64,000 nucleotides of DNA from Mustelus asterias. Taxonomy: Eukaryota. Location of the stretch: positions 109,616,001-109,680,000 of the forward strand of contig NC_135808.1 in assembly GCF_964213995.1 (NCBI RefSeq), given 5' to 3'. A program made the position numbers and the translations under genes. The notes under the pieces are model-generated. The model was not told the DNA's origin. It ran no database searches and saw nothing but the letters and a program-made list of their open reading frames with translations. Numbering within the stretch: position 1 is the stretch's first letter; each line of letters opens with the position of its first letter. This document shows, piece after piece, positions 3,848 through 54,417 of the stretch.

Positions 3848-4134
3848 TTAAATGCCCTCTGAAATGGTCCAGCAAGCCACTTAGTTCCAGGGTAATTAGG
3901 GATGGGCAATCAATGCTGGCCTTGCGAGTGACGCCCATATCCCTTGAACGAATAATAAAAAATGTAAAACTCACTGTGGGACCGGGCAGAGGAGGACTGA
4001 GGATAAAGATGAGAGGAAATGAGGGGATAAAATCATGGCTACATCAATTTGTTTTAATTGAAAATTACAAGTTCCAATTATACACACTTCACCAATGTTT
4101 ACATGCATCCATGAAGTTATGTAGATTTACGCAC

Positions 4135-4848
4135 CTGGAAGCAGGTCCCTGAAGTCAGTAATGTACTCTCCTGTCCATTCCCTTGCTTGATTGCAAGCAA
4201 CCTCCATCTCGAATGGTGTTATAACCGGTCTATAGAATTCACTGGAATCCAGCAGAGAGTTTTCTGGACAGGCTACAAGTACATATATATCCACCTCCAT
4301 GAAATTAGCTAGCTTAGCAGCATTCAGTTTACCCATTACAAAGGTGTAGCTTTTTTTGCCAGCCTGCTTGACAATTGATTTAAGATGTCCAATAGTAGAA
4401 AGATAGTCAGCGACACCAAGAGTCCCCACTAAAATCCCTACAACTTGAGCATCCTTGGCTCTTTCAATCATGTAGTATCGCTTCATTAAAGCCCTGTTAA
4501 CATTCAGGGTTTCACGTCTCCCGACCCCTTTCACTGGATCAAAGGAGCAAAAGGAACACTGATTCCATGTCATCATAAAGTTGGTCAGCGTCAGACTCTC
4601 CTGTCCAACATAGAACATGCTGTAGTCTTTCACGTCACTATTGGCACTGATGGTGAAATGCCGGCCAAACTTAGAAATAACTTGATTGCACGAATGGCTG
4701 CAGGATTTGACGGTAGAACAGGAATCAACATCACCTCCACCAAGGAAGCCATCAGCCCCACATGGATCAGTTGCTTCATTTTGGCCGCTGCAAATCGTTG
4801 AAACGACAAGGTTCTCATAATCTTGGTGAAGAAGTTGCTGTAGCTCTT
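4135..4848 (-). CDS. DPH2: DPH2 coding exon 4 (EELQQ...GILVGTLG...KLANF...ACPEN...DLLP)
   Basis: ORF 4127-4864; ttattag acceptor and CAG|gtgcgt donor; 714 nt, phase 1-1. Confidence 0.97.
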
Positions 4849-5496
4849 CTAATAAAAGGATCAAACAAATGCCTTAGAAAGGGCGTCATAATGGATAGTT
4901 ATATAAAAGCAGAGGTGGAAAACATATGCATTTGTACAGATCCAGTGTATATACCTTTTCAAACAGATGTAATTTTGGGATTAGGATCGTGAAGATAGTG
5001 TTCCTACCCAACTACATCCTACCTAGTTTTATCAATTCCCCATCTCAATCATTCTGGCTGATCTGTTGGCAAATAGGATCAACTGAGTTATTTGAAGCAA
5101 AGAGGTGCAATGGGGTTGGGAAGGAACCAAAGGCCTATTAGTCCTTGCAGCCCACACATGTAGAAGGAGCAACAAGGAGAAAGAGGAGAAAGTAAAAGTA
5201 CAATCCCATCTTTTTAAAGTAATCACTGTGAAAACGATTTCAGTTTCTACAATAAACATTTCATTTTTTAATTCTCATAGTGGGGTTCTGCATTATGAAT
5301 TTCTTCCTGGACAGCTCATAACCTCCAGTTTAGCACAGTGGATTCAATACTGACAATACCAAAGACTGGGATATACAAACAAGTCCGGAAGAATGGTCCT
5401 CATTGTGAGAAAGTCTCTTTTCCAACTGAACAGTGCAAGAAACAAAACGTGTACAGTATTAAAAGAGGGAATGGATTAAAGAGGAAAAGCTCTTAC

Positions 5497-11583: not shown

Positions 11584-13314
11584 CTGTCACGACACTACGG
11601 ATTTCCTACAGAAACTCAACGCACATGGAGCAGTTGAACCAGGAGCACTCCTCGTCACAATGGATGTCTCGGCACTCTACACCAGCATCCCCCACGATGA
11701 TGGCATTGCTGCAACGGCCTCAGTACTCAACGCCGACAACTGCCAGTTTCCAGATACAATTTTACAACTCATCCGCTTCATCCTGGACCACAATGTCTTC
11801 ACCTTCAACAACCGGTTCTTCATCCAGACACACGGAACAGCCATGGGGACCAAATTCGCACCTCAATATGCCAACACCTTCATGCACAGGTTCGAACAAG
11901 ACTTCTTCACCGCACAGGACCTTCAACCGATGCTATAGACTAGATACATCGATGACATTTTCTTCCTTTGGCATCATGGTAAACAATCACTGAAACAACT
12001 ATATGATGACATCAACAGGTTCCATCCCACCATCAGACTCACCATGGACTACTCTCCGGAATCGGTTGCATTCTTGGACACACGGATCTCCATTAAGGAC
12101 GGCCACCTCAGCACCTCACTGTATCGCAGCCCACGAATAACCTCACGATGCTCCACTTCTCCAGCTTCCACCCTAAACACGTTAAAGAAGCCATCCCCGA
12201 CGGACAAGCCCTCTGTATACACAGGATCTGCTCAGATGAGGAGGATCGCAACAGACACCTCCAAACGCTGAAAGATGCCCTCATAAGAACAGGATATGGC
12301 GTTCGACTCATTGATCCGACAGTTCCGACGCGCCACAGTGAAAAACCGCTCTGACCTCCTCAGAAGACAAACACGGAACACGGTGGACAGAGTACCCTTC
12401 GTCGTCCAGTACTTCCCCGGAGTGGAGAAGCTACGGCATCCGGAGCCTTCAACATGTCATTGATGAAGACGAACATCTCGCCAAGGCCATCCCCACAGCC
12501 CCACTTCTTGCCTTCAAACAACCGCACAACCTCACACAGAACATTGTCCGCAGCAAACTACCCAGCCTTCAAGAGAACAGTGACCACGACACCACACAAC
12601 CTTGCCACAGCAATCTCTGCAAGACGTGCCGGATCATCGACACGGATGCCATCATCTCACGTGAGAACACCACCTACCAGGTACACGGTACCTACTCTTG
12701 CAACTCGGCCAACGTTGTCTACCTGATAGGCTGCAGGAAAGGATGTCCCGTGGCATGGTACATTGGGGAAACCATGCAGACGCTATGACAACGGGTGAAT
12801 GAACACCGCTCAACAATCACCAGGCAAGACTGTTCTCTTCCTGTGGGGGAGCACATCAGCGGTCACGGGCATTCAGCCTCTGACCTTCGGGTAAGCGTTC
12901 TCTTCACGACACACGATAGCGCAGAGTCGCTGAGCAGAAACTGTTAGCCAAGTTCTGCATACACGAGGACGGCCTAAACCGGGATGTTGGGTTTATGTCA
13001 CACTATCAGTAACCCCCACAGCTTGCTTCCTGAAGTTGCAGAATCTCACTGGCTGTCCTGTCTGGAGACAATACACATCTCTTTAACCTGTGCTTAATGC
13101 TCCCTCCACTCACATTGTCTGTATCTTTAATACCTGGTTGGCTGTAGAGCTTCACATTCTAATCAGTATTCTGTAATTTGATTTTGTGTCTCTGTGCCGT
13201 TTGAGAGCAGATTTCCACTCCATCTGACGAAGGAGCAGTGCCCCGAAAGCTAATGGCATTTGCTACCAAATAAACCTGTTGGACTTTAACCTGGTGTTGT
13301 TCAAACTCTTACTG
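11584..13314 (+). mobile_element. Penelope-like element, 5'-truncated (RT + GIY-YIG, disrupted)
   Basis: MDVSALYTSIP, GTAMG, RYIDD and WYIGET motifs; 13-bp TSD cctttaaaacatt at 11571 and 13315. Confidence 0.95.
13220..13256 (+). ncRNA. Minimal type I hammerhead ribozyme motif in a Penelope terminal repeat
   Basis: ccat-CTGACGA-a-ggagc-agt-gcccc-GAAA-gcta-atgg: stem I, core, stem II (one mismatch), GAAA, NUH. Confidence 0.65.
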
Positions 13315-17367: not shown

Positions 17368-17983
17368 ATTGTGCCTGCTGGCCTGCATTTGCTCCCAGTC
17401 CAGGGGCCCTTTGACTTTAAACTTCTCACCCTGATTTTTATATCCAAGGCTTTTATACTCCAAAACTCACCCAGGCTTACATTCCTTTGAGATCTCTGCA
17501 CTCTTCTAGTTCTGGCCCCTTGCATGTCCCCAATTTTAATCCACCATTCGGGCCACGCCTTCAGCTTCCTAGCCTGAAGTTCTGGAATTTTTTCTCAAAG
17601 CCTCTTTGCCTCTCAACCTCCCTCTCCTCCTTAAAACCTAATTGACCAAGATTTTGGTCATCTGTCCTCATATCTCTTTATGTGGCTCAGTGTTAGGTGT
17701 TGTTTGATGACTCTTCTGTGAAGCACATTGGGATATTTGACTATGTTAAGATGCTATATAAATGTAAGGTCTGGTTGCTTGAAATTAACATTCAGAAATT
17801 AATAAATAATGAGAGAAATTGACCTCTTAATTCACTGAGAGCCTGAGTAATGCTAAAGACAGTAATTCAGGACATACTGATTGCATTTCTCCATAGCATT
17901 GTAGACAAAAATAAGTCAAATTTTAACTCATTTTTATATGTCATGGATATATGTAAAAATAAAAATATTTATTTTATTTTTAG

Positions 17984-18738
17984 ACTGGGTTTGTCCCTTT
18001 TTCATCGCCTTTGGAGCTTGTATGATATTGGCAACTGTTACCTGTTGCCTGTTTCACTTGCGGAAGACCAGAAACCGGAAAAAGGAGATAACAGAATGGG
18101 TGAATGCCATGAAATTTGGGGGGAAAGTGTATCATCCATTATTGCACTGGATTAAGAACAACAGTGATCTATCTATTAAAACTAGAATGTATTGCTCAGC
18201 CAGTGAGGAATGCAAGAAAAGAAAGATTTGGAAAACCCGCACCATATTACCAGTGAGATACAAGAAGATAATGGAGGAACCAAGTGTGCTTAATCGTGAA
18301 GCAGGTGACTGTAATAGCATGCACGTTGGAAACAAGCCTTTTCCCAAACCACCTGTGTATGTCGCCACTGGTGAAGCCAGTTCCCTATATGGTCAGGTTA
18401 ATCATAATGAACAAGCCAAGTGTAAGTCTTCCTTAAATACTAAGAAATCCCAGCAGCAAGTCTTTCCAAACTCTCTTTTTCTGGATGAAAAACGTGTGGT
18501 GGAACGTGACAAACGGCAATCTGTCAATGCCTGTCCAGATGTAAATAGTCCGTTTAGTTCTTCAGAACACAAGGAGTGTTCAGACTCTATTTCAACTAGA
18601 TTATCTGATTTAAAAGTGGAAAAGCATGAAGCTTCAACCATCAGACAGGAGCGCTGTAAGGCACCTGTGTTGTCCGAACCAAACTCAGATACCCAGAAAG
18701 CCAATGTCTATTCTGTCCCTGACACTGTCTCTTTGTGA
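17984..18738 (+). CDS. Terminal coding exon of an uncharacterised single-pass membrane protein
   Basis: 755-nt open frame in non-repeat DNA; acceptor ttttattttatttttag; hydrophobic WVCPFFIAFGACMILATVTCCLFHL followed by RKTRNRKK; TGA ends at 18738; AATAAA at 19051 and 19115. Confidence 0.75.
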
Positions 18739-31830: not shown

Positions 31831-31955
31831 GGTCGAAAGCTTACTTCTATTTGCTTGAAGACAAATGTCTGAGCTATACTGATGCCACAAACATTACATT
31901 TTTGCTATAATATGACCACTACCAAGCATCTCTTTGGCCTTTCTGAGATTGAGAA

Positions 31956-32160
31956 CAGTAATAAGTCTCACAACACCAGGGTAAAGTCCAACAAGTTTAT
32001 TTGGTATCACGAGCTTTCGGAGCGCTGCTCTTTCATCAGGTAATGAAGGAGCAGCGCTCCGAAAGCTCGTGAAAACAAATAAACTTGTTGGACTTTAACC
32101 TGGTGTTGCGAGACTTCTTACTGTGCCCACCCCAGTCCAACACCGGCATCTCCACATCAT
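31956..32160. mobile_element. Fold-back mini-element made of two inverted Penelope ends
   Basis: About 80-bp inverted arms; TSD tgagattgagaa at 31944 and 32160. Confidence 0.85.
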
Positions 32161-33494: not shown

Positions 33495-34710
33495 CCAAAA
33501 TACCATGGATGTTGGAAATCTGAAATAAAAATGGAAATATTCAGCAGGCCAGGCTGCATCTGTTTCAGGTCTCTGACCTTTCATCAGAACAGGGTCAAGT
33601 TAGAAAGGTTACAGGAATTAACAAGTCAAAATGGTGGGGGGAGGATGGGAAAAAGAACAAAAGGGTGGGTGGAAGACAGGAGAAATTAAATGACAAATGA
33701 GTTGATGGTACAAGGCCAAAAGGAGTGATAACAGGACAAGTAAAGAAAGAAAAGATGTGTTTAGAGGAGCTGTGAATGGCAGAATGATGAACAGCTGCCA
33801 TTCAAAAATGAAAATAAGAGAAAAATGAGAGTAAAACCAAAACCTGTAAAGAAAGAGGAAATAAATGGCAGCAAGGATTACAACCCATAACTGTTGAACT
33901 TAATGTTGGACCGAGGAGTCTTCAAGTGCCAAAGCAGAAGAAAATGTGCTTTTACTTGAGCTTACATTGGAACGGTGTAAGGGGACCATCTACAGAGAGG
34001 CAAATGCGAAAGCCAGGTGGAAAATTAAAATGTAATAAGGACCTTAAATTTACACTTGCTGACTGAACAGATGTTTAACGCAAGGCAGTCACCCAGTCTG
34101 TGTTTGGTCTCCCCAGCGGAGAGCAAATTATATTGTGAGTAATGAATACAGTACTAGGTTGGTTAAGATCAAGCATCAGATCAAGCCCAAGAAGGGGTGC
34201 AATGCCTTTTCTTGTCAGCGTGGATCTTGTATGTCTCTCTTGTGGGGACCATGACTTGGATTCAATTGGAATTATGTTTTTGGAACAAGCAAGGAGATGA
34301 GTTTGTGCTTTCCCGGTCTGTTCTGCACATTGTAACTTTAAGAATGGAGTAAAAATTTTAAAATGAAACTAGATATAAAGAAGTGCACATTAATCGGCGA
34401 TTCATCTGGAAGGAGTGTTTGTGACCTGAAATGATGAGGAGAGAGGGGGTTAAAGAGTAGCTGCATGCTGGGAAGGTGCTGTCATAAGGGGAGGGGATGC
34501 TCAGATGATTGAAGAGTGGACCAGGGCGTCGTGGAGAAGAATGCTGAAAGGAGCAGAGCAAGATGGATTTGATGGTGGCGTCACACTGAAGGTGGCAGAA
34601 ATCTGTTGAATGTGGAGGTTGGTGGGAGAAGGTAATGACAAGGGAACCCCTATCATATTCGTGTGAGGTCGGGGAAGAGGTGAGAACAGAGAGTGAGAAA
34701 TGGAATGGAC
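33495..34710 (-). mobile_element. Degenerate second-family Penelope-like element; may resume at ~36890-37060
   Basis: Its end resembles the short repeats at 13540, 14970, 25880 and 50500; CTGATGA...GAAA core at 33563-33590. Confidence 0.5.
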
Positions 34711-38120: not shown

Positions 38121-38665
38121 GATCTCTTACACATCCCTACAATTTGGGAGTAGATGAACAATAAATTATGAACATTTTGTAAAAGAAGCAGAAAGCTAAA
38201 AGCCCCTATAAGTATTGTGGAAAAGACAACAAACGATTGCAGATTTTCTGGTGAGGGCGAAATTCTGAACACCGGGGACTCATTCAGTATATTTTTCTGC
38301 AAAGCTCTACACTTTAAAAATGTTGTTGACTTGTTTGCACAGTGCCGAAATTAAGCAATCGGCGATTTGTGCTGCAAAAAAAACGCAAAGACAGAACAAA
38401 TAAAAACTGATAATATACAAGTATTTTAAAAAAACACTGGCGAAAGCGCATGCAAAGTGTCCAGACACAATTGTAACATGAGTTTGTTGCAATTTCGATG
38501 AGAGGTTTGGAGACTTTTGAACTCTACAAATACAATCGCAATGGATTGAATTCGGACATTGAGAAAAGGTTTAGCAAGGCTACGTCTGAAACCAATACAA
38601 TTCAGATGATGAACATGGAAAAATTTCTTTGAGCTGTTAGGGGCAAAATACATCATCACTTTTAC

Positions 38666-38900: not shown

Positions 38901-39194
38901 CAGCTAAAGTAGTTGATGCAATAGTGGCCATCACTTATTTGCAACTTTTTCTCCCTTAAATGGCACTAGACAAAATTCTGAGCTCACGCACCAACCAAGT
39001 CAAGAACAGCTTCTCCCCTGCTGCCATCAGACCTTTGGATTGACCTACCTCGTATTAAGTTGATCGTTCTCTACACCCTAGCTATGACTGTAACACCACA
39101 TTCGGCAGCCTCTTCTTTCCTTCTCTATATACTGTATACTTTGTATAGCGCACAAGGGCCTTTTGGTTAAGATCAAGTGTAGTATCGACATCCT

Positions 39195-41967
39195 ACAAAG
39201 AACAAAGAACAGTACAGCACAGGAAACAGGCCCTTCGGCCCTCCAAGCCTGTGCCGCTCCTTGGTCCAACTAGACCAATCGTTTGTATCCCTCCATTCCC
39301 AGGCTGCTCATGTGACTATCCAGGTAAGTCTTAAACGATGTCAGCGTGCCTGCCCCCACCACCCTCTGTGTAAAAAACGTCCCTCTGATGTCTGAGTTAT
39401 ACTTCGCCCCTCTCAGCTTGAGCCCGTGACCCCTCGTGATCGTCACCTCCGACCTGGGAAAAAGCTTCCCACTGTTCACCCTATCTATACCCTTCATAAT
39501 CTTGTATACCTCTATTAGATCTCCCCTCATTCTCCGTCTTTCCAAGGAGAACAACCCCAGTCTACCCAATCTCTCCTCAGAGCTAAGACTCTCCATACCA
39601 GGCAACATCCTGGTAAACCTTCTCTGCACTCTCTCCAATGCCTCCACATCCTTCTGGTGACCAGAACTGGACGCAGTACTCCAAATGTGGCCTAACCAGC
39701 GTTCTATACAGCTGCATCATCAGACTCCAGCTTTTATACTCTATACCCCGTCCTATAAAGGCAAGCATACCATATGCCTTCTTCACCATCTTCTCCACCT
39801 GTGTTGCCACCTTCAAGGATTTGTGGACTTGCACACCTAGGTCCCTCTGTGTTTCTATACTCCTGATGACTCTGCCATTTATTGTATAACTCCTCCCTAC
39901 ATTATTTCTTCCAAAATGCATCACTTCGCATTTATCCGGATTAAACTCCATCTGCCACCTCTCCGCCCAATTTTCCAGCCTATCTATATCCTGCTGTATT
40001 GCCCGATAATGCTCTTCGCTATCCACAAGTCCAGCCATCTTCATGTCATCCGCAAACTTGCTGATTACACCAGTTACACCTTCTTCCAAATCATTTATAT
40101 ATATCACAAATAGCAGAGGTCCCAGTACAGAGCCCTGCGGAACACCACTGGTCACAGACCTCCAGCCGGAAAAAGACCCTTCGACCACTACCCTCTGTCT
40201 CCTATGGCCAAGCCAGTTCTCCACCCATCTAGCCACTTCTCCTTGTATCCCATGAGCCTTAACGTTCTTAACCAACCTGCCATGTGGGACTTTGTCAAAT
40301 GCCTTACTGAAATCCATATAGACGACATCCACGGCCCTTCCTTCATCAACCGTTTTTGTCACTTCCTCAAAAAACTCCACCAAATTTGTAAGGCACGACC
40401 TCCCTCTTACAAAACCATGCTGTCTGTCACTAATGAGTTTGTTCCGTTCTAAATGCACATACATCCTGTCTCTAAGAATCCTCTCCAACAACTTCCCTAC
40501 CACGGACGTCAAGCTCACCGGCCTATAATTTCCTGGGTTATCCCTGCTACCCTTCTTAAACAACGGGACCACATTCGCTATCCTCCAATCCTCAGGGACC
40601 TCACCCGTGTCCAAAGAAGCGACAAAGATTTCCGTCAGAGGCCCAGCAATTTCACCTCTCGTTTCCCTGAGCAGTCGAGGATAGATGCCATCAGGCCCTG
40701 GGGCTTTGTCAGTTTTAATGTTCCCTAAAAAACCTAACACTTCCTCTCTTGTAATGGAGATTTTCTCTAACGGGTCAACACCTCCCTCCGAGACACTCCT
40801 GGTTAACACGCCCCTCTCCTTCGTGAATACCGATGCAAAGTATTCATTTAGGATCTCCCCTATTCCCTTGGGTTCTAAGCATAATTCCCCTCCTTTGTCC
40901 CTGAGAGGTCCGATTTTCTCCCTGACAACTCTTTTGTTCCTAACGTATGAATAGAATGCCTTAGGATTCTCCTTAATCCTGCCTGCCAAGAACATCTCGT
41001 GACCTCTTTTTGCCCTTCTAACTCCCCGTTTGAGATCTTTCCTACTCTCTCTGTATTCCTCCAGAGCTCCATCTGTTTTCAGTTGCCTGGACTTAACGTA
41101 CGCCTCCCTTTTCATTTTCATCAGATCCTCAATTTCCCTGGTTATCCACGGCTCTCGAATCCTACCTTTCCTATCTTTCCTTTTTACAGGCACATGCCTA
41201 TCCTGCAGCCTTATCAATAGTTCCTTAAAAGACTCCCACATGCCAGACGCGGACTTACCCTCGAACATCCTCTCCCAATCAACATCCACCAATTCCTGCC
41301 TAATCCGGCTATAGTCAGCCTTCCCCCAATTTAGCACCCTGCCCGTAGGACAGCACTCATCCTTGTCCATTACTATCCTAAAGTTAACAGAGTTGTGGTC
41401 ACTATTTGCCACATGTTCCCCTACCGAAACTTTGACGACCTGACCGGGCTCATTTCCCAGAACTAGGTCCAGTATAGCCCCCTCTCTAGTCGGGCTATCT
41501 ACATACTGTTCCAAAGAACCTTCCAGTACGCATTTTACAAATTCCTCCCCGTCCGGTCCCCCAGCTCTAAGCACTTTCCAGTCTGTGCCAGGGAAATTAA
41601 AGTCCCCCACTACAACAACCCTATGTTTTCTGCACCTATCCAGAATCTCCTGACATATCCTTTCCTCCACTTCCCGTGGGCTGTTGGGTGGTCTGTAGTA
41701 CACCCCCAGCATAGTGACTGCACCCTTCCTGTTTCTGAGTTCCACCCACAGCGACTCAGTACATGACCCCTCTAAGTTGTCTACCCTCTGCACCGCGGTA
41801 ATATGCTCCTTAACTAATATCGCTACTCCCCCACCATTTTTAGCCCCTCCTCTGTCTCGCCTAAAACACTTATACCCCGGAATATTCAGCTGCCAGTCCT
41901 GTCCTTCTTTTAACCAAGTTTCCGTCACCGCAACCACATCCAAATTCCGCACAAGCATTAAGGCCCT
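39195..41967 (-). mobile_element. Young CR1 LINE with a 791-aa open APE endonuclease + RT frame, 5'-truncated
   Basis: VTETW, YRPPN, GDFN, SDH and FADD motifs; (ttctttg)n tail; ccta at both junctions. Confidence 0.97.
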
Positions 41968-42036
41968 AATTGGTTGAAGTCATGAGGTTACACTAAGGCT
42001 TCATTTGAAGCAATTTTTTAAAGCAGCATTTCAGCC

Positions 42037-42229
42037 TTTTTTTTATACTTTTCCAATTCAATCAAATCAAATCCAATTCAGAGTCTCAACAAGTTGAGAC
42101 ATTTCAGATCCAGGCTGACAAGACAGGGCAAGCGACCAAACCACCCTGTCCTGGGCCTGATCTACATGAGCCAAGCTGTTTGGAGAAGGGGGAGGTTCCT
42201 CCTCCAAGACTTGAGCTCATTTGCATCTT
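42037..42229 (-). mobile_element. U2-SINE-like family, 5'-truncated copy C, antisense inside copy B
   Basis: Reverse complement of 43081-43274, including the A tail (T8 at 42037-42044). Confidence 0.9.
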
Positions 42230-42397
42230 TTGGCTAAGATGCAAATGAGATCAAGCCTTGGAGAAGATGCAATGCCTGCTCCAATCAGCTTGGATCATGT
42301 AGATCAAGCCCAGGACAGGAAGTGAGAGACCTGTCTTGTCAGCTTGGATCTGACAAGCTCTACACTTTAAAAATGTTGTTGACTTGTTTGCACAGTA

Positions 42398-42752
42398 ATC
42401 CTTTCCTATGCTTTCATACCCTGCTTAAGGGTGCTGTAAGAGTTTTAACAACACCAGGTTAAAGTCCAACAGGTTTATTTGGCAAATGCCATTAGCTTTT
42501 GGAGCCCTGCTCCTTCGTCAGATGGAGTGGATATCTGCTCCCAAACGAGGCCAAATGTGTATCCCTCTGACACTAGGGTCAATTTAGCATGGCCAATCTA
42601 CCTAACCTGCACATCTTTGGACTGTGGGAGGAAACCGGAGCATCTGGAGGAAACCCATGCAGACACGGGGAGAACGTGCAGACTCCGCACAGACAGTGAC
42701 CCAAGGCCGGAATTGAACCCGGGTCCCTGTCGCTGTGAGGCAGCAGTGCTAA
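42398..42752 (+). repeat. ~355-bp duplicate of 43925-44282 (LINE/Penelope/SINE composite)
   Basis: Both copies share the same inter-element junctions. Confidence 0.92.
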
Positions 42753-42941
42753 ATGGGTTGAATAGCCTCTTCTGCACCATAGGGATTCTATGAGAATCTT
42801 TTAAAATGCAACATTTCTCCTCGCTCAGCATTTCCTTAACAACATTAATGCCACCAGTAAGCAGGGACCCTGATTGAAAAAAAAGGTGCATATACTCCCC
42901 AGTTAAGGGTCCCTCTAATAACATGAATGATTAATAAATTA

Positions 42942-43274
42942 ATCGCTTCTCGGCCTTTTGGCTAAGATCAAGTGTAGTATGGAGAGGATGCTGCACTTGG
43001 TTGAGGTCATTAGGTTACGCTGAAGCTTCATATGTTTCATATGAAGCAATTTTTTAAAGCGGCATCTTGGCCTTTTGGCTAAGATGCAAATGAGCCCAAG
43101 TCTTGGAGGAGGAACCTCCCCCTTCTCCAATCAGCTTGGCTCATGGAGATCGGGCCCAGGACAGGGTGGTTTGGTCGCTTGCCCTGTCTTGTCAGCCTGG
43201 ATCGGAAATGTCTCAACTTGTTGAGACTCTGAATTGGATTTGATTTGATTGAATTGGAAAAGTATTAAAAAAAA
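42942..43274 (+). mobile_element. U2 snRNA-headed SINE-like retroposon, full-length copy A
   Basis: U2 nt 1-39 at 42942-42980, then a non-U2 body and an A8 tail; 17-bp TSD aacatgaatgattaata at 42920 and 43273. Confidence 0.9.
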
Positions 43275-45319
43275 CATGAATGATTAATAGATTTCATGTT
43301 TATGAATGGAAAGTCCTGGACGAAGGGTGAGAATCACATATACACAGAATCGGATTGGTACAGCACAAGGAGGCCATCTGACTTTCCGGTCTCGCTCGCC
43401 CCGAAACCAGAAAATACCATCCAAGGTCAATGGAACCTTTCCATGGTCCACCCCTTGCTCACTCCAATTCCCGTGGTGGGCAGGACAGGAAAATTCACCC
43501 GTCATGTCTGTGCGGCTCTCGGCAAGAACTCAACTAGGTCTACTGCCTCGCCTTTTCCTCATAGCCCTGCAACTTTTTTCTCTTCAGATCTTTCTCCAAT
43601 TCTCTTTTGAATGCCTGAATTGAATTTACGTCCACCACACTCTCATACAGTGCATTCCAGATCCTAACTGCTTATTTCTTCATGAAAAGGTTTTCTTCGT
43701 GTTGCTGTTGCATCTTTTGCCAATCACCTGAAATCGGTGTCCTCTGCTTCTCAATCCTGACACCAAAGGGAACAGTTTCTCCCAGTTTCTGTCCAGAGAC
43801 CTGCTGATTTTGAACATCTCTTTTAAAACCTGCCCTTAATCTTCTCTTCAAGAAGAACAACTTCAGCTCCTCCAATCTATCCAAGCTCTTCAACTCTAGA
43901 ACTACTCTTGTGAATCTTTTCTGCATCCTTTCCCATGCTTTCATACCCTGCTTAAGGGTGCTGTAAGAGTTTTAACAACACCAGGTTAAAGTCCAACAGG
44001 TTTATTTGGTAGCAAATGCCATTAGCTTTCAGAGCCCTGCTCCTTCGTCAGATGGAGTGGATATCTGCTCCCAAACAAGGCCAAATGTGTATCCCCCTGA
44101 CACTAGGGTCAATTTAGCATGGCCAATCTTCTGAACCTGCACATCTTTGGACTGTGGGAGGAAACCGGAGCATCCGGAGGAAATCCATGCAGACACGGGG
44201 AGAACGTGCAGTCTCCACACAGACAGTGACCCAAGGCTGGAATTGAACCCGGGTCCCTGTCGCTGTGAGGCAGCAGTGCTAACCACTATGCCACCATGCC
44301 GTTGAGTATTTTCACATCTGATCTTTTCTTGTCCTGCTCCGTAACTACTCTAAACCTATTGATATCGTGATTGCTGTGTCCCAAATACTCCTCCACTGAA
44401 ACTTCAGATCTAGTATTGCACCTGTCCTTGTTGGGCTGGAAACATACTGATCAAGAAAACTCTCTTGTACAACTTTTACGACTTCTTCCTCATCTTTGCT
44501 CTTTACATTTTTATTCTTCCAATCTGAATTAGCAGAATTGAAGTCCCCTATTATCGGTGCTCCAAAGCTCTTCCACCCTTTTTGCAATTTGCCTGAAAAT
44601 TTCCTCATCTATCTCCTTTCCACTATTTGGTGCCCCATGTTATGCACCCAGAAGCATAACAGCTTCTCCATTATTCCTGAATTCAAATGGATTCGGTCTT
44701 TGACCCCCTCAAGTACATATCCCTTTCCAATGCTATAATAGTTTCTTTAATCAATAGTGGCACTCCAACTCCTTTTCTTCCCTACTTTTTCCTGGATAAC
44801 TTGTAACCAAGGTGTTCTTAATCTCAGCTTCTTTGGGCTCAGTCCTTGTTTTTGCCACTACATCATAATCCCATTAGATTACATGTGACTGCAACTAACC
44901 AACCTTATTCAACATGCTGCATGTATTTACATATTTGCATTCCAAATCCATCTTACACTGCCTTGGATTATTCCTCCATCTGATTGTTTCTTTAGGTGAA
45001 CTACCTTTTGTTCTAATGGTATTTGTCTCTCACTGTCCTGCCAACATGTTGTCAGTTTAACTCAGTTGGCTGGACAGCTGGTTCATAATGCCAAGTGACG
45101 CCAACAGTGTGGGTTCGATTCCAGAGGTAACTTATGAAAGCCTACCTTTTTTATCTTACCCCTTGTCTGAGGTGTGGTGATCCTCAGGTAAAATCACCAC
45201 CAGTCAGCTCTTCCCCCTCAAAGGGGAGAGCAGCCTATGGCCATCTGGGACTATGGTGACTTTGTGTTTACATATTGTATCTCCTCTCGAATGCTACATT
45301 CTGGTGTCTGGCTCCTTAT

Positions 45320-46269: not shown

Positions 46270-47386
46270 AGAAGTCTCACAACACCAGGTTAAAGTCCAA
46301 CAGGTTTATTTGGTAGCAAATACTATAAGCTTTCGGAGCACTGCTCCTTCGTCAGATAGAGTGGAAATGTGCTCTCAAACAGGGACACGGTGGATGGGAC
46401 ACGGTGGACGGAGTACCCTTCATCGTCCAGTACTTCCTCGGAGCGGAGAAGCTACGGCATCTCCTCCGGAGCCTTCAACATGTCATTGATGAAGACGAAC
46501 ATCTCGCCAAGGCCATCCCCACACCCCCACTTCTTGCCTTCAAACAACCACACAACCTCAAACAGACCATTGTCCGCAGCAAACTACCCAGCCTTCAGGA
46601 GAACAGTGACCACGACACCACACAACCCTGCCACAGCAACCTCTGCAAGACGTGCCGGATCATCGACACGGATGCCATCATCTCACGTGAGAACACCATC
46701 TACCAGGTACACGGTACCTACTCTTGCAACTCGGCCAACATTGTCTACCTGATACGCTGCAGGAAAGGATGTCCCGAGGCATGGTACATTGGGGAAACCA
46801 TGCAGACACTACGACAACGGATGAATGAACACCGCTCGACAATCACCAGGCAAGACTGTTCTCTTCCTGTGGGGGAGCACTTCAGCAGTCACGGGCATTC
46901 AGCCTTGGATCTTCAGGTAAGTGTTCTCCAAGGTGGCCTTCACGACACACGACAGCGCAGGGTCGCTGAGCAGAAACTGATAGCCAAGTTCCGCACACAT
47001 GAGGACGGCCTAAACCGGGATGTTGGATTTATGTCACATTATCAGTAACCCCCACAGCTTGCCTCCTGGGCTTGTAGAATCTCACTAGCTGTTCTGTCTG
47101 GAGACAATACACATTTCTTTAACCTGTGTTTAATGTTCCCTCCACCCACATTGTCTGTACCTTTAAGACCTGGCTGGCTGTAGGATTCGCATTCTAATCA
47201 GTATTCTGCAACTTGATATTGTCTGTTTGCACTCTTTGAGAGCACATTTCCACTCCATCTGATGAAGGAGCAGTGCTCCGAAAGCTTATGGTATTTGCTA
47301 CCAAATAAACCTGTTGGACTTTAACCTGGTGTTGTGAGACTTCTTACTGTGTTCACCCCAGTCCAACGCCGGCATCTCCACATCAT
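46270..47386 (+). mobile_element. Penelope-like element with an open GIY-YIG frame and an inverted 5' partial terminal repeat
   Basis: ORF 46404-47048 (IVYLIRC...WYIGET...RMNEH...GLN); 46270-46380 is inverted relative to 47235-47345; TSD tcataagttcataaga at 46257 and 47383. Confidence 0.95.
47255..47291 (+). ncRNA. Minimal hammerhead motif; inverted partner at 46323-46359
   Basis: ccat-CTGATGA-a-ggagc-agt-gctcc-GAAA-gctt-atgg with perfect stems. Confidence 0.7.
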
Positions 47387-50278: not shown

Positions 50279-50488
50279 TCATGATGTGGAAATGCCAGCG
50301 TTGGACTGGGGTAGGCATAGTAAGAAGTCTCACAACACCAGGTTAAAGTCCAACAGGTTTATTTGGTAGCACAAGTTTTCAGAGCGCTGACTGGTCACTC
50401 ACCTGATGAAGGGGCAGCGCTCAGAAAGCTCGTTCTACCAAATAAACCTGTTGGACTTTAACCTGGTGTTGTGAGACTTCTTACTGTA
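50279..50488. mobile_element. Fold-back Penelope mini-element
   Basis: Inverted arms as in 31956-32160. Confidence 0.85.
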
Positions 50489-51239: not shown

Positions 51240-51480
51240 ACCGCTATGGCGCTGAGGGCCCTCACCAATATGGCGACGGGGAACCCTCATTAAGATGGCG
51301 GTGGGGAGCCCTCACCAAGATGGCGACGGGGGCGGCCCTCATTAAGATGGCGGCGGCGCGCCCTGACCCACCTAAACCACCATGGCGGCTGGCCATTGCG
51401 TCACCTCCGGTGGAGTGGGCGCGGCTACTCTCGGCGAAGTAGGAACCGGAAGCAGGTTCCTGTCAACATGGCGCCGAGCG
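51240..51480 (+). promoter_or_regulatory. USP24 CpG-island promoter with tandem YY1-type sites and an ETS site
   Basis: ATGGCG cores at 51246, 51270, 51295, 51320, 51347, 51382 and 51468; CCGGAAG at 51446-51452. Confidence 0.75.
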
Positions 51481-51672
51481 GCCCAGATCCGGTGTCAGAG
51501 TTTTAGTTCAGCAAAACTGACAGGCCGGCAAAAGGGATTGTGCGTTCACATTAGAGTGAGAGGGAACGCGGCTGCACCGCTGTGCCGACAGTCACCCCCC
51601 AGGCCGGAGAGTTGTGCGGGGACAAGTCTCTATGGGAGAAGAGGATTGAAGCGACAGGCTGTGTCTGCCAGG

Positions 51673-51999
51673 ATGGACGTGGAGGAAGAGCACATGACGA
51701 CGCTGCTGTGCATGGGCTTCTCGGAGCCCGCCGCCATCCGCAAGGCGCTCCGCATGGCCAAGAACGACATCAACGAGGCTGTGGCCCTCCTCACCAACGA
51801 AAGCCCCGGCCTCGGCTACGAGCCGATGGAGAGCGGCGATCGCCAGGTGGGAGGAGGTGGAGGAGGCGGTGGCACCGGCTCCCGTGGTGGAGGAGGCGGC
51901 GGAGGTGGAGGGAGTGGAGGTGGGGGAGGAGGAGGAGGGGACTACAACCGGAGTGGCTTCGACCCTCCACCCGCCTACGATGAGGTGGTAGAGGTGGAG
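51673..51999 (+). CDS. USP24: USP24 coding exon 1 (UBA-like domain + Gly-rich linker)
   Basis: MDVEEEHMTTLLCMGFSEPAAIRKALRMAKNDINEAVALLTNE...GFDPPPAY; donor GAG|gtaaga; 327 nt. The rest of the window is intron 1. Confidence 0.97.
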
Positions 52000-52699
52000 G
52001 TAAGATTTACTGCAGTAATGAGAATGCGGGCTTGCACTCCCTAGTGGCTTCAAGGCACCCGTGGAAACAAGTGGCTTTATACTAGCTCTCATTTGATAGT
52101 CCGGCAGCTTATTTTTTTAGGCTCTATTCTTTGAATCGTGTCCTCAGTCATTGAACTGATGAATTAAAAACTCAGTTCTCTCCTTATTACATAATTGTGG
52201 AGTCCAATGTTACCTGTCACTTTCACAGAAGTGAAGACATACTGAGACAAGAATTCTCAAGATGATTTTTGCACTACTGTGATGGTACGCTGAGGAAGTT
52301 GCATATTTGTATATATTTTCGAAGGATCAAAATCTAAAGTCTTAATTTTGAATTTTCTATAGACTTGACAATTTTTTACAATTGGAAGTAGCCATGCTTT
52401 TTTTTTGCTGCAATCTTGCACTGGATTTGTTGATATCAGTGAGACAACAGGGAAAACATGCCACACAACTGTTTTTAAGCTCATAATACTTTTTATCGCC
52501 CCCGGATCAAACGATGAACAGCTTGTGACTGTTAATTTTCTCTTTCAGAGTACTCTCTCATGCTGAGATATAATTGTATAGGTGCCGGCAGGCTAGCCCA
52601 TAAACTTGTTTTTGTATATGAGCATCAATGCAAAATGTTGGCAAGTTCTATTAACCTAGTAGATTAAGAATGTGCTTTGGTGGCACACATTGGAGGTGT

Positions 52700-54225: not shown

Positions 54226-54417
54226 ATGTGGCGATGCTGGCGTTGAACTGGGATGGGCATAGTGGGAGGTCTCACAGCGCCGGGTTGAGGTCCAACAGGT
54301 TTATGTGGAATCACAAGCTTTTGGAGCGCTGCTCCTTCATCAGGTAAGTGATCAAAAGCTCGTGATTCCCAGTAGACCTGTTGGACTTTAGCCTGGTGTT
54401 GTGGGACTTCTTACTGT
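54226..54417. mobile_element. Fold-back Penelope mini-element
   Basis: Inverted arms; TSD tgttaagaatg at 54218 and 54415. Confidence 0.8.

Follow-up and report, generated by a model that had tools for sequence, protein, structure and literature searches.

A probable SINEU-like retroposon family, largely derived from U2 snRNA, in the shark Mustelus asterias

A fragment of U2 snRNA joined to a non-coding body, an A tail and a target-site duplication (TSD) lies in a 64-kb stretch of Mustelus asterias DNA (contig NC_135808.1, positions 109,616,001 to 109,680,000; the window, throughout). Is this a single chimera or one copy of a retroposon family, and where did its body come from? The answer that we hold with reasonable confidence is a SINEU-like, non-autonomous shark retroposon family, almost wholly derived from U2 and probably mobilised by a Tx1-type LINE, whose growth history we infer from the forms of its copies.

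Four copies within 9.1 kb

Family members were found by blastn and nhmmer within the window. There are four (A-D), of three structural types, all inside 9.1 kb (Table 1). The outer head of copy A scored 51.8 bits against the Rfam U2 model (gathering score 46) and, compared by eye, is identical at 39/39 positions to the U2 printed in bioRxiv 2021.08.01.454689. The TSD of this copy is exact (17/17) and its 17-mer is present only twice in the window; exact 14-mer pairs 300-400 bp apart number 18 in the window, four of them from this TSD and 14 from one other repeat. The A run at the 3' end is short (8 A, 43267-43274), the last two bases belonging to the TSD. The head, TSD and tail reported in the first-pass annotation of this locus are therefore upheld. 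No open reading frame of at least 150 aa lies over copy A. Five extra bases (42937-42941) separate the left TSD from U2 +1 and resemble the adjoining target sequence. A functional U2 gene, with full U2, Sm site, stem-loops III/IV and an upstream promoter, is seen neither in copy A, in which the U2 3' half is absent and the TSD lies 5 nt before +1, nor in copy D, which is 5'-truncated, decayed and unseen by Rfam.

Table 1. Copies of the family, modules of copy A and the LINE within copy C (positions in the window)
Feature	Position	Strand	Description
Copy A	42942-43272	+	331 nt; outer head to A tail
Copy A, left TSD	42920-42936	+	17 bp; identical to 43273-43289
Copy A, outer head	42942-42980	+	U2 snRNA nt 1-39, which spans the branch-point recognition sequence; Rfam U2 alignment
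Copy A, anti-head	42988-43026	+	Degenerate copy of U2 nt 4-39 in inverted orientation; a 7-nt loop precedes it
Copy A, hairpin and T6	43025-43055	+	10-bp hairpin, then T6 run (43050-43055)
Copy A, inner head	43062-43092	+	Inner, older U2 head (nt 4-33), now a perfect 11-bp hairpin
Copy A, hairpin unit 1	43091-43143	+	Tandem duplicate of unit 2
Copy A, hairpin unit 2	43147-43203	+	3' arm probably modified U2 nt ~31-62, judged through copy D
Copy A, terminal hairpin	43210-43227	+	Small; putative U2 stem-loop IIb position, from its collinear place in copy D
Copy A, 3' end	43228-43272	+	Short AT-rich repeats, ATTAAA hexamer (43264-43269), A tail
Copy A, right TSD	43273-43289	+	Identical to 42920-42936
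Copy B	42037-42229	-	Young, 5'-truncated; 180/186 identical to copy A
Copy C, part 1	39157-39196	+	Outer head (U2 nt 11-40), spacer, start of anti-head
LINE splitting copy C	39197-41969	-	Unrelated, 2.8 kb; Pfam RVT_1 and Exo_endo_phos
Copy C, part 2	41970-42040	+	Remaining anti-head, hairpin, T6, inner-head left arm
Copy C, part 3	42228-42355	+	Inner-head right arm, two hairpin units; 3' end lost
Copy D	34158-34367	+	Old single-hairpin-unit form; nhmmer E 4.8e-07 to copy A

Two more copies within 4 kb had been annotated, one with the same head-body fusion. Copies B and C do exist, copy D had been missed, and the likeness of the fusions is approximate: the U2 match reaches nt 40 in copy C and nt 39 in copy A, with spacers of 4 and 7 nt, respectively. 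Against copy A, 41970-42040 of copy C gave 61 matches, 10 mismatches and 9 gap columns, and 42232-42351 gave 96, 24 and 8. Copy B sits in reverse inside the TTTT loop of the inner U2 hairpin of copy C, flanked by a 4-5 bp duplication, and has thereby created a new fold-back (42196-42268, fold z -7.8). A single twin-primed insertion producing both B and C was ruled out, since both span the same segment yet are 97% and 76% identical to A. The insertion targets of the four copies differ, and A, B and D have unlike flanks and their own duplications of 17, 4-5 and 5 bp, that of copy D (34153-34157 and 34368-34372) accompanying a decayed A-rich tail. Modules are common to A, B and C, and copy D has one such unit, as judged within the window. 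A non-autonomous, poly(A)-primed, SINEU-like family in a shark is supported, in line with the earlier proposal of a SINE-like family and not a one-off chimera. Copies A and B, 97% alike, are young, and the family has probably been active recently.

The LINE inside copy C, which we take to be CR1-like, still has a 798-codon open frame (39583-41979, minus strand), so its insertion is recent and copy C is older than it. At 42356-42752, in place of the 3' end of copy C, there are 42 nt that duplicate about 38302-38343 and then ~355 nt that duplicate 43925-44282 (95.5%). This looks like templated multi-jump repair adjoining the B/C fold-back.

The surroundings of the family, among them host genes, were also recorded. 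A DPH2 exon (4127-4873, minus strand) is 94% identical to the Cetorhinus and Scyliorhinus proteins, at most 87% to those of other sharks and 81% to that of Callorhinchus, in agreement with a galeomorph shark as host. An ORF at 17905-18738 (plus strand) matches THEG4 of Pfam weakly, and a first exon with a UBA domain, presumably USP24-like, is found at 51376-52044 (plus strand) in a GC-rich region. Two related repeat copies (46329-47048 and 12375-13314; 91%) have a weak GIY-YIG Pfam match and are presumably Penelope-like. Long self-inverted repeats at 31955-32124, 50319-50485 and 54266-54410 are ends of a common repeat family. The flanks of copy D (33950-34157 and 34368-34620) read by eye as one broken, GIY-YIG-like minus-strand frame; the label of Penelope remnant was not confirmed for them, blastp and Pfam having found nothing.

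The outer head, its possible renewal and mobilisation

Of the 36 head bases in U2 nt 4-39, 31 can pair with the anti-head of copy A, and seven of these pairs are G·U. The duplex has a free energy of -41.6 kcal/mol, a strength reached by 0/12,524 50-mers of the window and 0/3,000 shuffles, whereas scoring the anti-head against the head by plain identity gave only p = 0.04. Six changes between anti-head and head are wobble-compatible transitions, none are incompatible transitions and seven are transversions. Since the head is identical to U2 at all seven G·U pairs, the change lies on the anti-head side. The heads of A and C are 28/29 identical and the remainder 157/191, a borderline difference (Fisher p 0.056). 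The head of copy C pairs weakly with the part of its anti-head beyond the LINE (-13.6 kcal/mol). A possible likeness of the end of the anti-head to U6 was not supported by Rfam.

The outer heads end at U2 nt 39/40, which is where the 3' flanks of the U2-targeting LINEs Keno and Utopia begin (nt 39; PMC4640811); the first-pass annotation had these LINEs inserting near this U2 position. The source of the head that we rank first, though tentatively, is a set of master copies lodged in real U2 genes at nt 38/39, which would use the U2 promoter. Each insertion into a U2 gene would then renew the head, and the copies in the window would be promoterless off-target products. Reverse transcriptase (RT) switching onto U2 seems to us a less probable source, as does a fixed head combined with some other flanking promoter. 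U2 from nt 39 onward is absent behind A, B and D, and the 3' end of C is lost, so that U2-gene masters and RT switching both stay proposals. The annotated birth in a U2 gene, with transcription from its promoter, is accordingly compatible with a U2-identical head ending at the Keno/Utopia site, but A, B and D lie outside U2 genes and template switching would account for the head just as well.

A specific form of switching, a sub-model of the same SINEU-like family, would use the anti-head as a guide. The master RNA would start at the anti-head and pair in trans with nt 4-39 of cellular U2, and at nt 39/40 the RT would jump to the bound U2, giving each insertion a new head. We consider this unlikely overall, although several observations fit it. 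The head still agrees with U2 at each of the seven G·U pairs, the trans duplex (-40.1 kcal/mol) is far stronger than the head's own fold (-10.4), and the spacers of A and C are unlike. Repeated 5' additions with variable junctions have been described for SINEU-2 (PMC4494074), and snRNA template switching is not L1-specific (PMC4476161). On the other hand, the window holds no headless full-length copy, the anti-head of copy C pairs weakly and just two junctions are observed. Moreover, U2 nt 4-39 are protein-bound in snRNPs. A still bolder version, doubtful in our view, is an independently evolved shark retroposon made of U2 only, in which the 39-nt antisense would pair in trans with the U2 snRNA or U2 gene of the host and guide head capture or targeting of the Keno site. 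If true, it would be an antisense-guided parasite of spliceosomal RNA, possibly active and able to titrate the U2 branch-point region.

Returning to the SINEU-like family as a whole, a T6 run would terminate Pol III. Rfam searches gave no match to tRNA, 5S, 7SL, U1, U6 or ribozymes, and the T6 run together with the lack of a tRNA, 5S or 7SL head argues against Pol III. The element RNA is probably a Pol II transcript started from a promoter outside the element; Kojima likewise argued against Pol III for SINEU (PMC4494074). As for mobilisation, the TSD, the A tail and 5' truncation point to target-primed reverse transcription, which would be carried out by a Tx1-type LINE. A whale shark paper reports that sharks have Tx1-type repeats but no full LINE1 (PMC8455134), which makes Tx1 a likelier mobiliser than L1, and crocodilian SINEU have been attributed to Tx1 elements related to Keno (PMC4494074). 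The L1/Tx1 mobiliser proposed earlier is thus better narrowed to a putative Tx1 one; no Tx1/Keno element or partner LINE was recognised within the window. Keno itself would at most be the mobiliser of the masters.

Folding and the source of the body

The body had been described as ~285 nt of non-U2 sequence, which is probably wrong. Besides hairpins, it holds the antisense head and a second copy of U2 nt 4-33, the inner head, matching the outer one in 27/31 columns; the copy A hairpins probably trace, via copy D, to U2 nt 24-84. An Rfam search of the inner part of copy A detected U2 nt 7-26 only (E 0.065), and the inner-head hairpin has a fold z of -7.3. The 43228-43272 segment has neither an Sm site nor the U2 3' half, and copies A and B both end before the Sm site. 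The RNA of copy A folds at -146 kcal/mol (z -10.3; 0/100 shuffles as stable), and just one of 256 sampled 334-nt windows, the B/C junction, beats it. Across seven hairpin units from A-D, 95.9% of cells are paired, compared with at most 54% in slid controls. Six of 14 pairs have changed on both sides and covariation is above that of all 500 shuffles, although the number of doubly changed pairs was reached by 57/500 shuffles and the rows are related to each other. Matches to miRNA and snoRNA families in Rfam fell far below gathering scores and were taken as generic hairpins; identity as an H/ACA snoRNA was dropped by eye, the hinge being too short.

Copy D would link these units to U2. It is collinear with U2 nt 17-181, with an insert of ~23 nt at nt 31, in a hand alignment made and counted by eye against the non-shark U2 of bioRxiv 2021.08.01.454689. 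The matches are 13/14 over nt 17-30 and, after the insert, 32/54 with one gap over nt 31-84, 9/9 over nt 100-108, 8/8 over nt 111-118, 19/33 over nt 120-152 and 9/15 over nt 167-181, in total 90 of 132 columns, with 31 transitions and 11 transversions (p 1e-7). U2 nt 85-99, 109-110, 119 and 153-166 stand outside this column count and were charged as gaps or mismatches within the scored chains. Copy D retains what we take to be the Sm-site region and remnants of stem-loops III and IV. Under HOXD70 scoring, with the 5' block excluded, the score of the chain over nt 31-152 was reached by 2/10,000 random sequences; for the middle block alone the count was 16/10,000 and for the 3' half alone 185/10,000. 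At the nt 100-108 region copy D also matches a Xenopus primer (PMC2199211) at 11/11 positions, allowing for its two engineered Sm changes. A lenient gap scheme gave only p 0.01-0.04 for copy D vs U2, and the 3' half of copy D folds no better than shuffles (z 0.04). Upstream of copy D a promoter-like word was noted and then set aside, given that this copy carries a duplication and a tail of its own and that the flanking sequence looks like another repeat.

The body of copy B alone is not significantly similar to U2 (its score was reached by 5,679/10,000 random sequences), and cmscan with Rfam did not detect U2 in the copy D region, so the U2 origin of the copy A units is judged through their homology to copy D. 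On this comparison the family body is probably reworked U2. The alternative, that a U2-headed SINE carries a body unrelated to U2, for example a Tx1/Keno 3' UTR as in the anatomy first annotated, draws on these two results, on the restriction of the U2 match in the inner part of copy A to nt 7-26 and on SINEU-1, whose body is of no known source (PMC4494074). We regard it as improbable, since copy D has derived sequence in common with A, B and C and six further blocks of it follow the order of U2, with transitions in strong excess. Nor did the body match any other repeat or LINE end in the window, which goes against the 3' UTR reading; the best nhmmer match outside family pieces (E 0.95) was an internal self-match. 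Plasmid and phage matches were likewise absent, and the body pattern had 0 occurrences in bacterial and archaeal genomes, which has no bearing on sharks.

An octamer motif, which we take to be an snRNA distal-element/Oct site, lies in the inner U2 head of A (43084-43091), C (42239-42246) and B (42219-42226) and is absent from D. Octamers are not enriched in the window (7 vs 5.0 expected; 22/100 shuffles). This motif, the strong conservation of structure and the Sm-site region kept by copy D would suit a domesticated variant U2, or another functional shark ncRNA gene, as the source of the copies, which would then be retropseudogenes. That origin is very unlikely, as the copies in the window have TSDs and tails and lack an intact gene context, their branch-point region has either mutated or been sequestered, the several diverged types suit mobile subfamilies and the octamer count is near expectation. 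Least probable of all are independent U2 retropseudogenes or U2/LINE chimeras multiplied by local duplication, with no true family: U2 retrocopies abound and many are 3'-truncated (PMC5322556, PMC4476161), and the four copies lie close together with a local rearrangement at the 3' end of C, but A, B and D differ in flanks and duplications, the same multi-module structure is seen in A and C, which are about 82% identical, and there are compensatory changes between units.

Under the preferred reading of a largely U2-derived family, the copies suggest three steps. Mobility would have come first to a nearly complete U2 that carried a short insert at nt 31, by which its branch-point region was folded into a hairpin (type D). 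The hairpin would then have been duplicated and stem-loop I perfected, the Sm site and 3' half being replaced by a poly(A) end in the A/B line. Finally, a new U2 nt 1-39 head with its inverted copy behind would have given types A/B and C. The resulting RNA would be a chain of hairpins locking up each U2 segment, which may keep it from disturbing splicing or the 3' processing of snRNA, or may stabilise the RNA.

Relation to known elements and implications

The family has a U2-derived head, a length below 500 bp (331 nt), a non-coding sequence, a 3' A run, a compound structure common to its copies, an internal oligo-T (T6) and no Pol III-type head, as SINEU do. Our verdict is that it is a SINEU variant by function, a likeness to the crocodilian elements drawn from their published description. 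SINEU-1 is likewise short and poly(A)-tailed, with a U2 head and internal oligo-T, is described as having grown by repeated 5' U2 additions and partial duplication, and has no known LINE with the same 3' end (PMC4494074), as none is found here in the window. The shark family differs in its host, in the lack of any visible U1 part, in a body apparently derived from U2 where that of SINEU-1 is given as of unknown origin, in its antisense head copy, unmentioned in the main text on SINEU-1, and in the youth of A and B, SINEU-1 being extinct (PMC4494074). SINEU-3 is a monomer that resembles a modified U2 broken near nt 32, and Kojima likened it to monomeric Alu (PMC4494074); copy D plays this part here. 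However, SINEU-3 has ~50 nt deleted after nt 32 and a unique 3' 40 nt (PMC4494074), whereas copy D keeps a diverged nt 31-84, has ~23 nt inserted and reaches nt ~181; in addition, no target like Mariner-N4 was recognised for the shark family.

The outer head ends beside the U2 insertion site of Keno (Tx1 clade) and Utopia (PMC4640811, PMC6136364), but the shark family has no RT or endonuclease coding and A, B and D lack the downstream U2 sequence. It resembles snRNA retropseudogenes and snRNA/LINE chimeras in its 3'-truncated U2 at the 5' end, TSD and possible template switch (PMC4476161, PMC5322556), and departs from them in that the downstream part is no recognisable LINE and the compound structure is common to copies. 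Kojima in 2015 found no SINEU outside crocodilians (PMC4494074). Among the literature matches listed, in a search whose scope excluded most subscription papers, there was no report of a shark SINEU; the family may already be catalogued in Repbase or Dfam.

A further and apparently young lineage in sharks would mean that SINEs headed by snRNA arise repeatedly, with the 7SL SINEs of hagfish as a precedent (PMC7245038). Kojima did not settle how SINEU, lacking an internal promoter, come to be transcribed (PMC4494074), a question made testable here by the invariant head, which stops at the Keno/Utopia site. The series from D to C to A would trace a route from a spliceosomal RNA to a mobile element in which each U2 segment has been hairpinned, and its structure suggests a testable way in which SINEU-like elements may be transcribed and keep their U2 head fresh.
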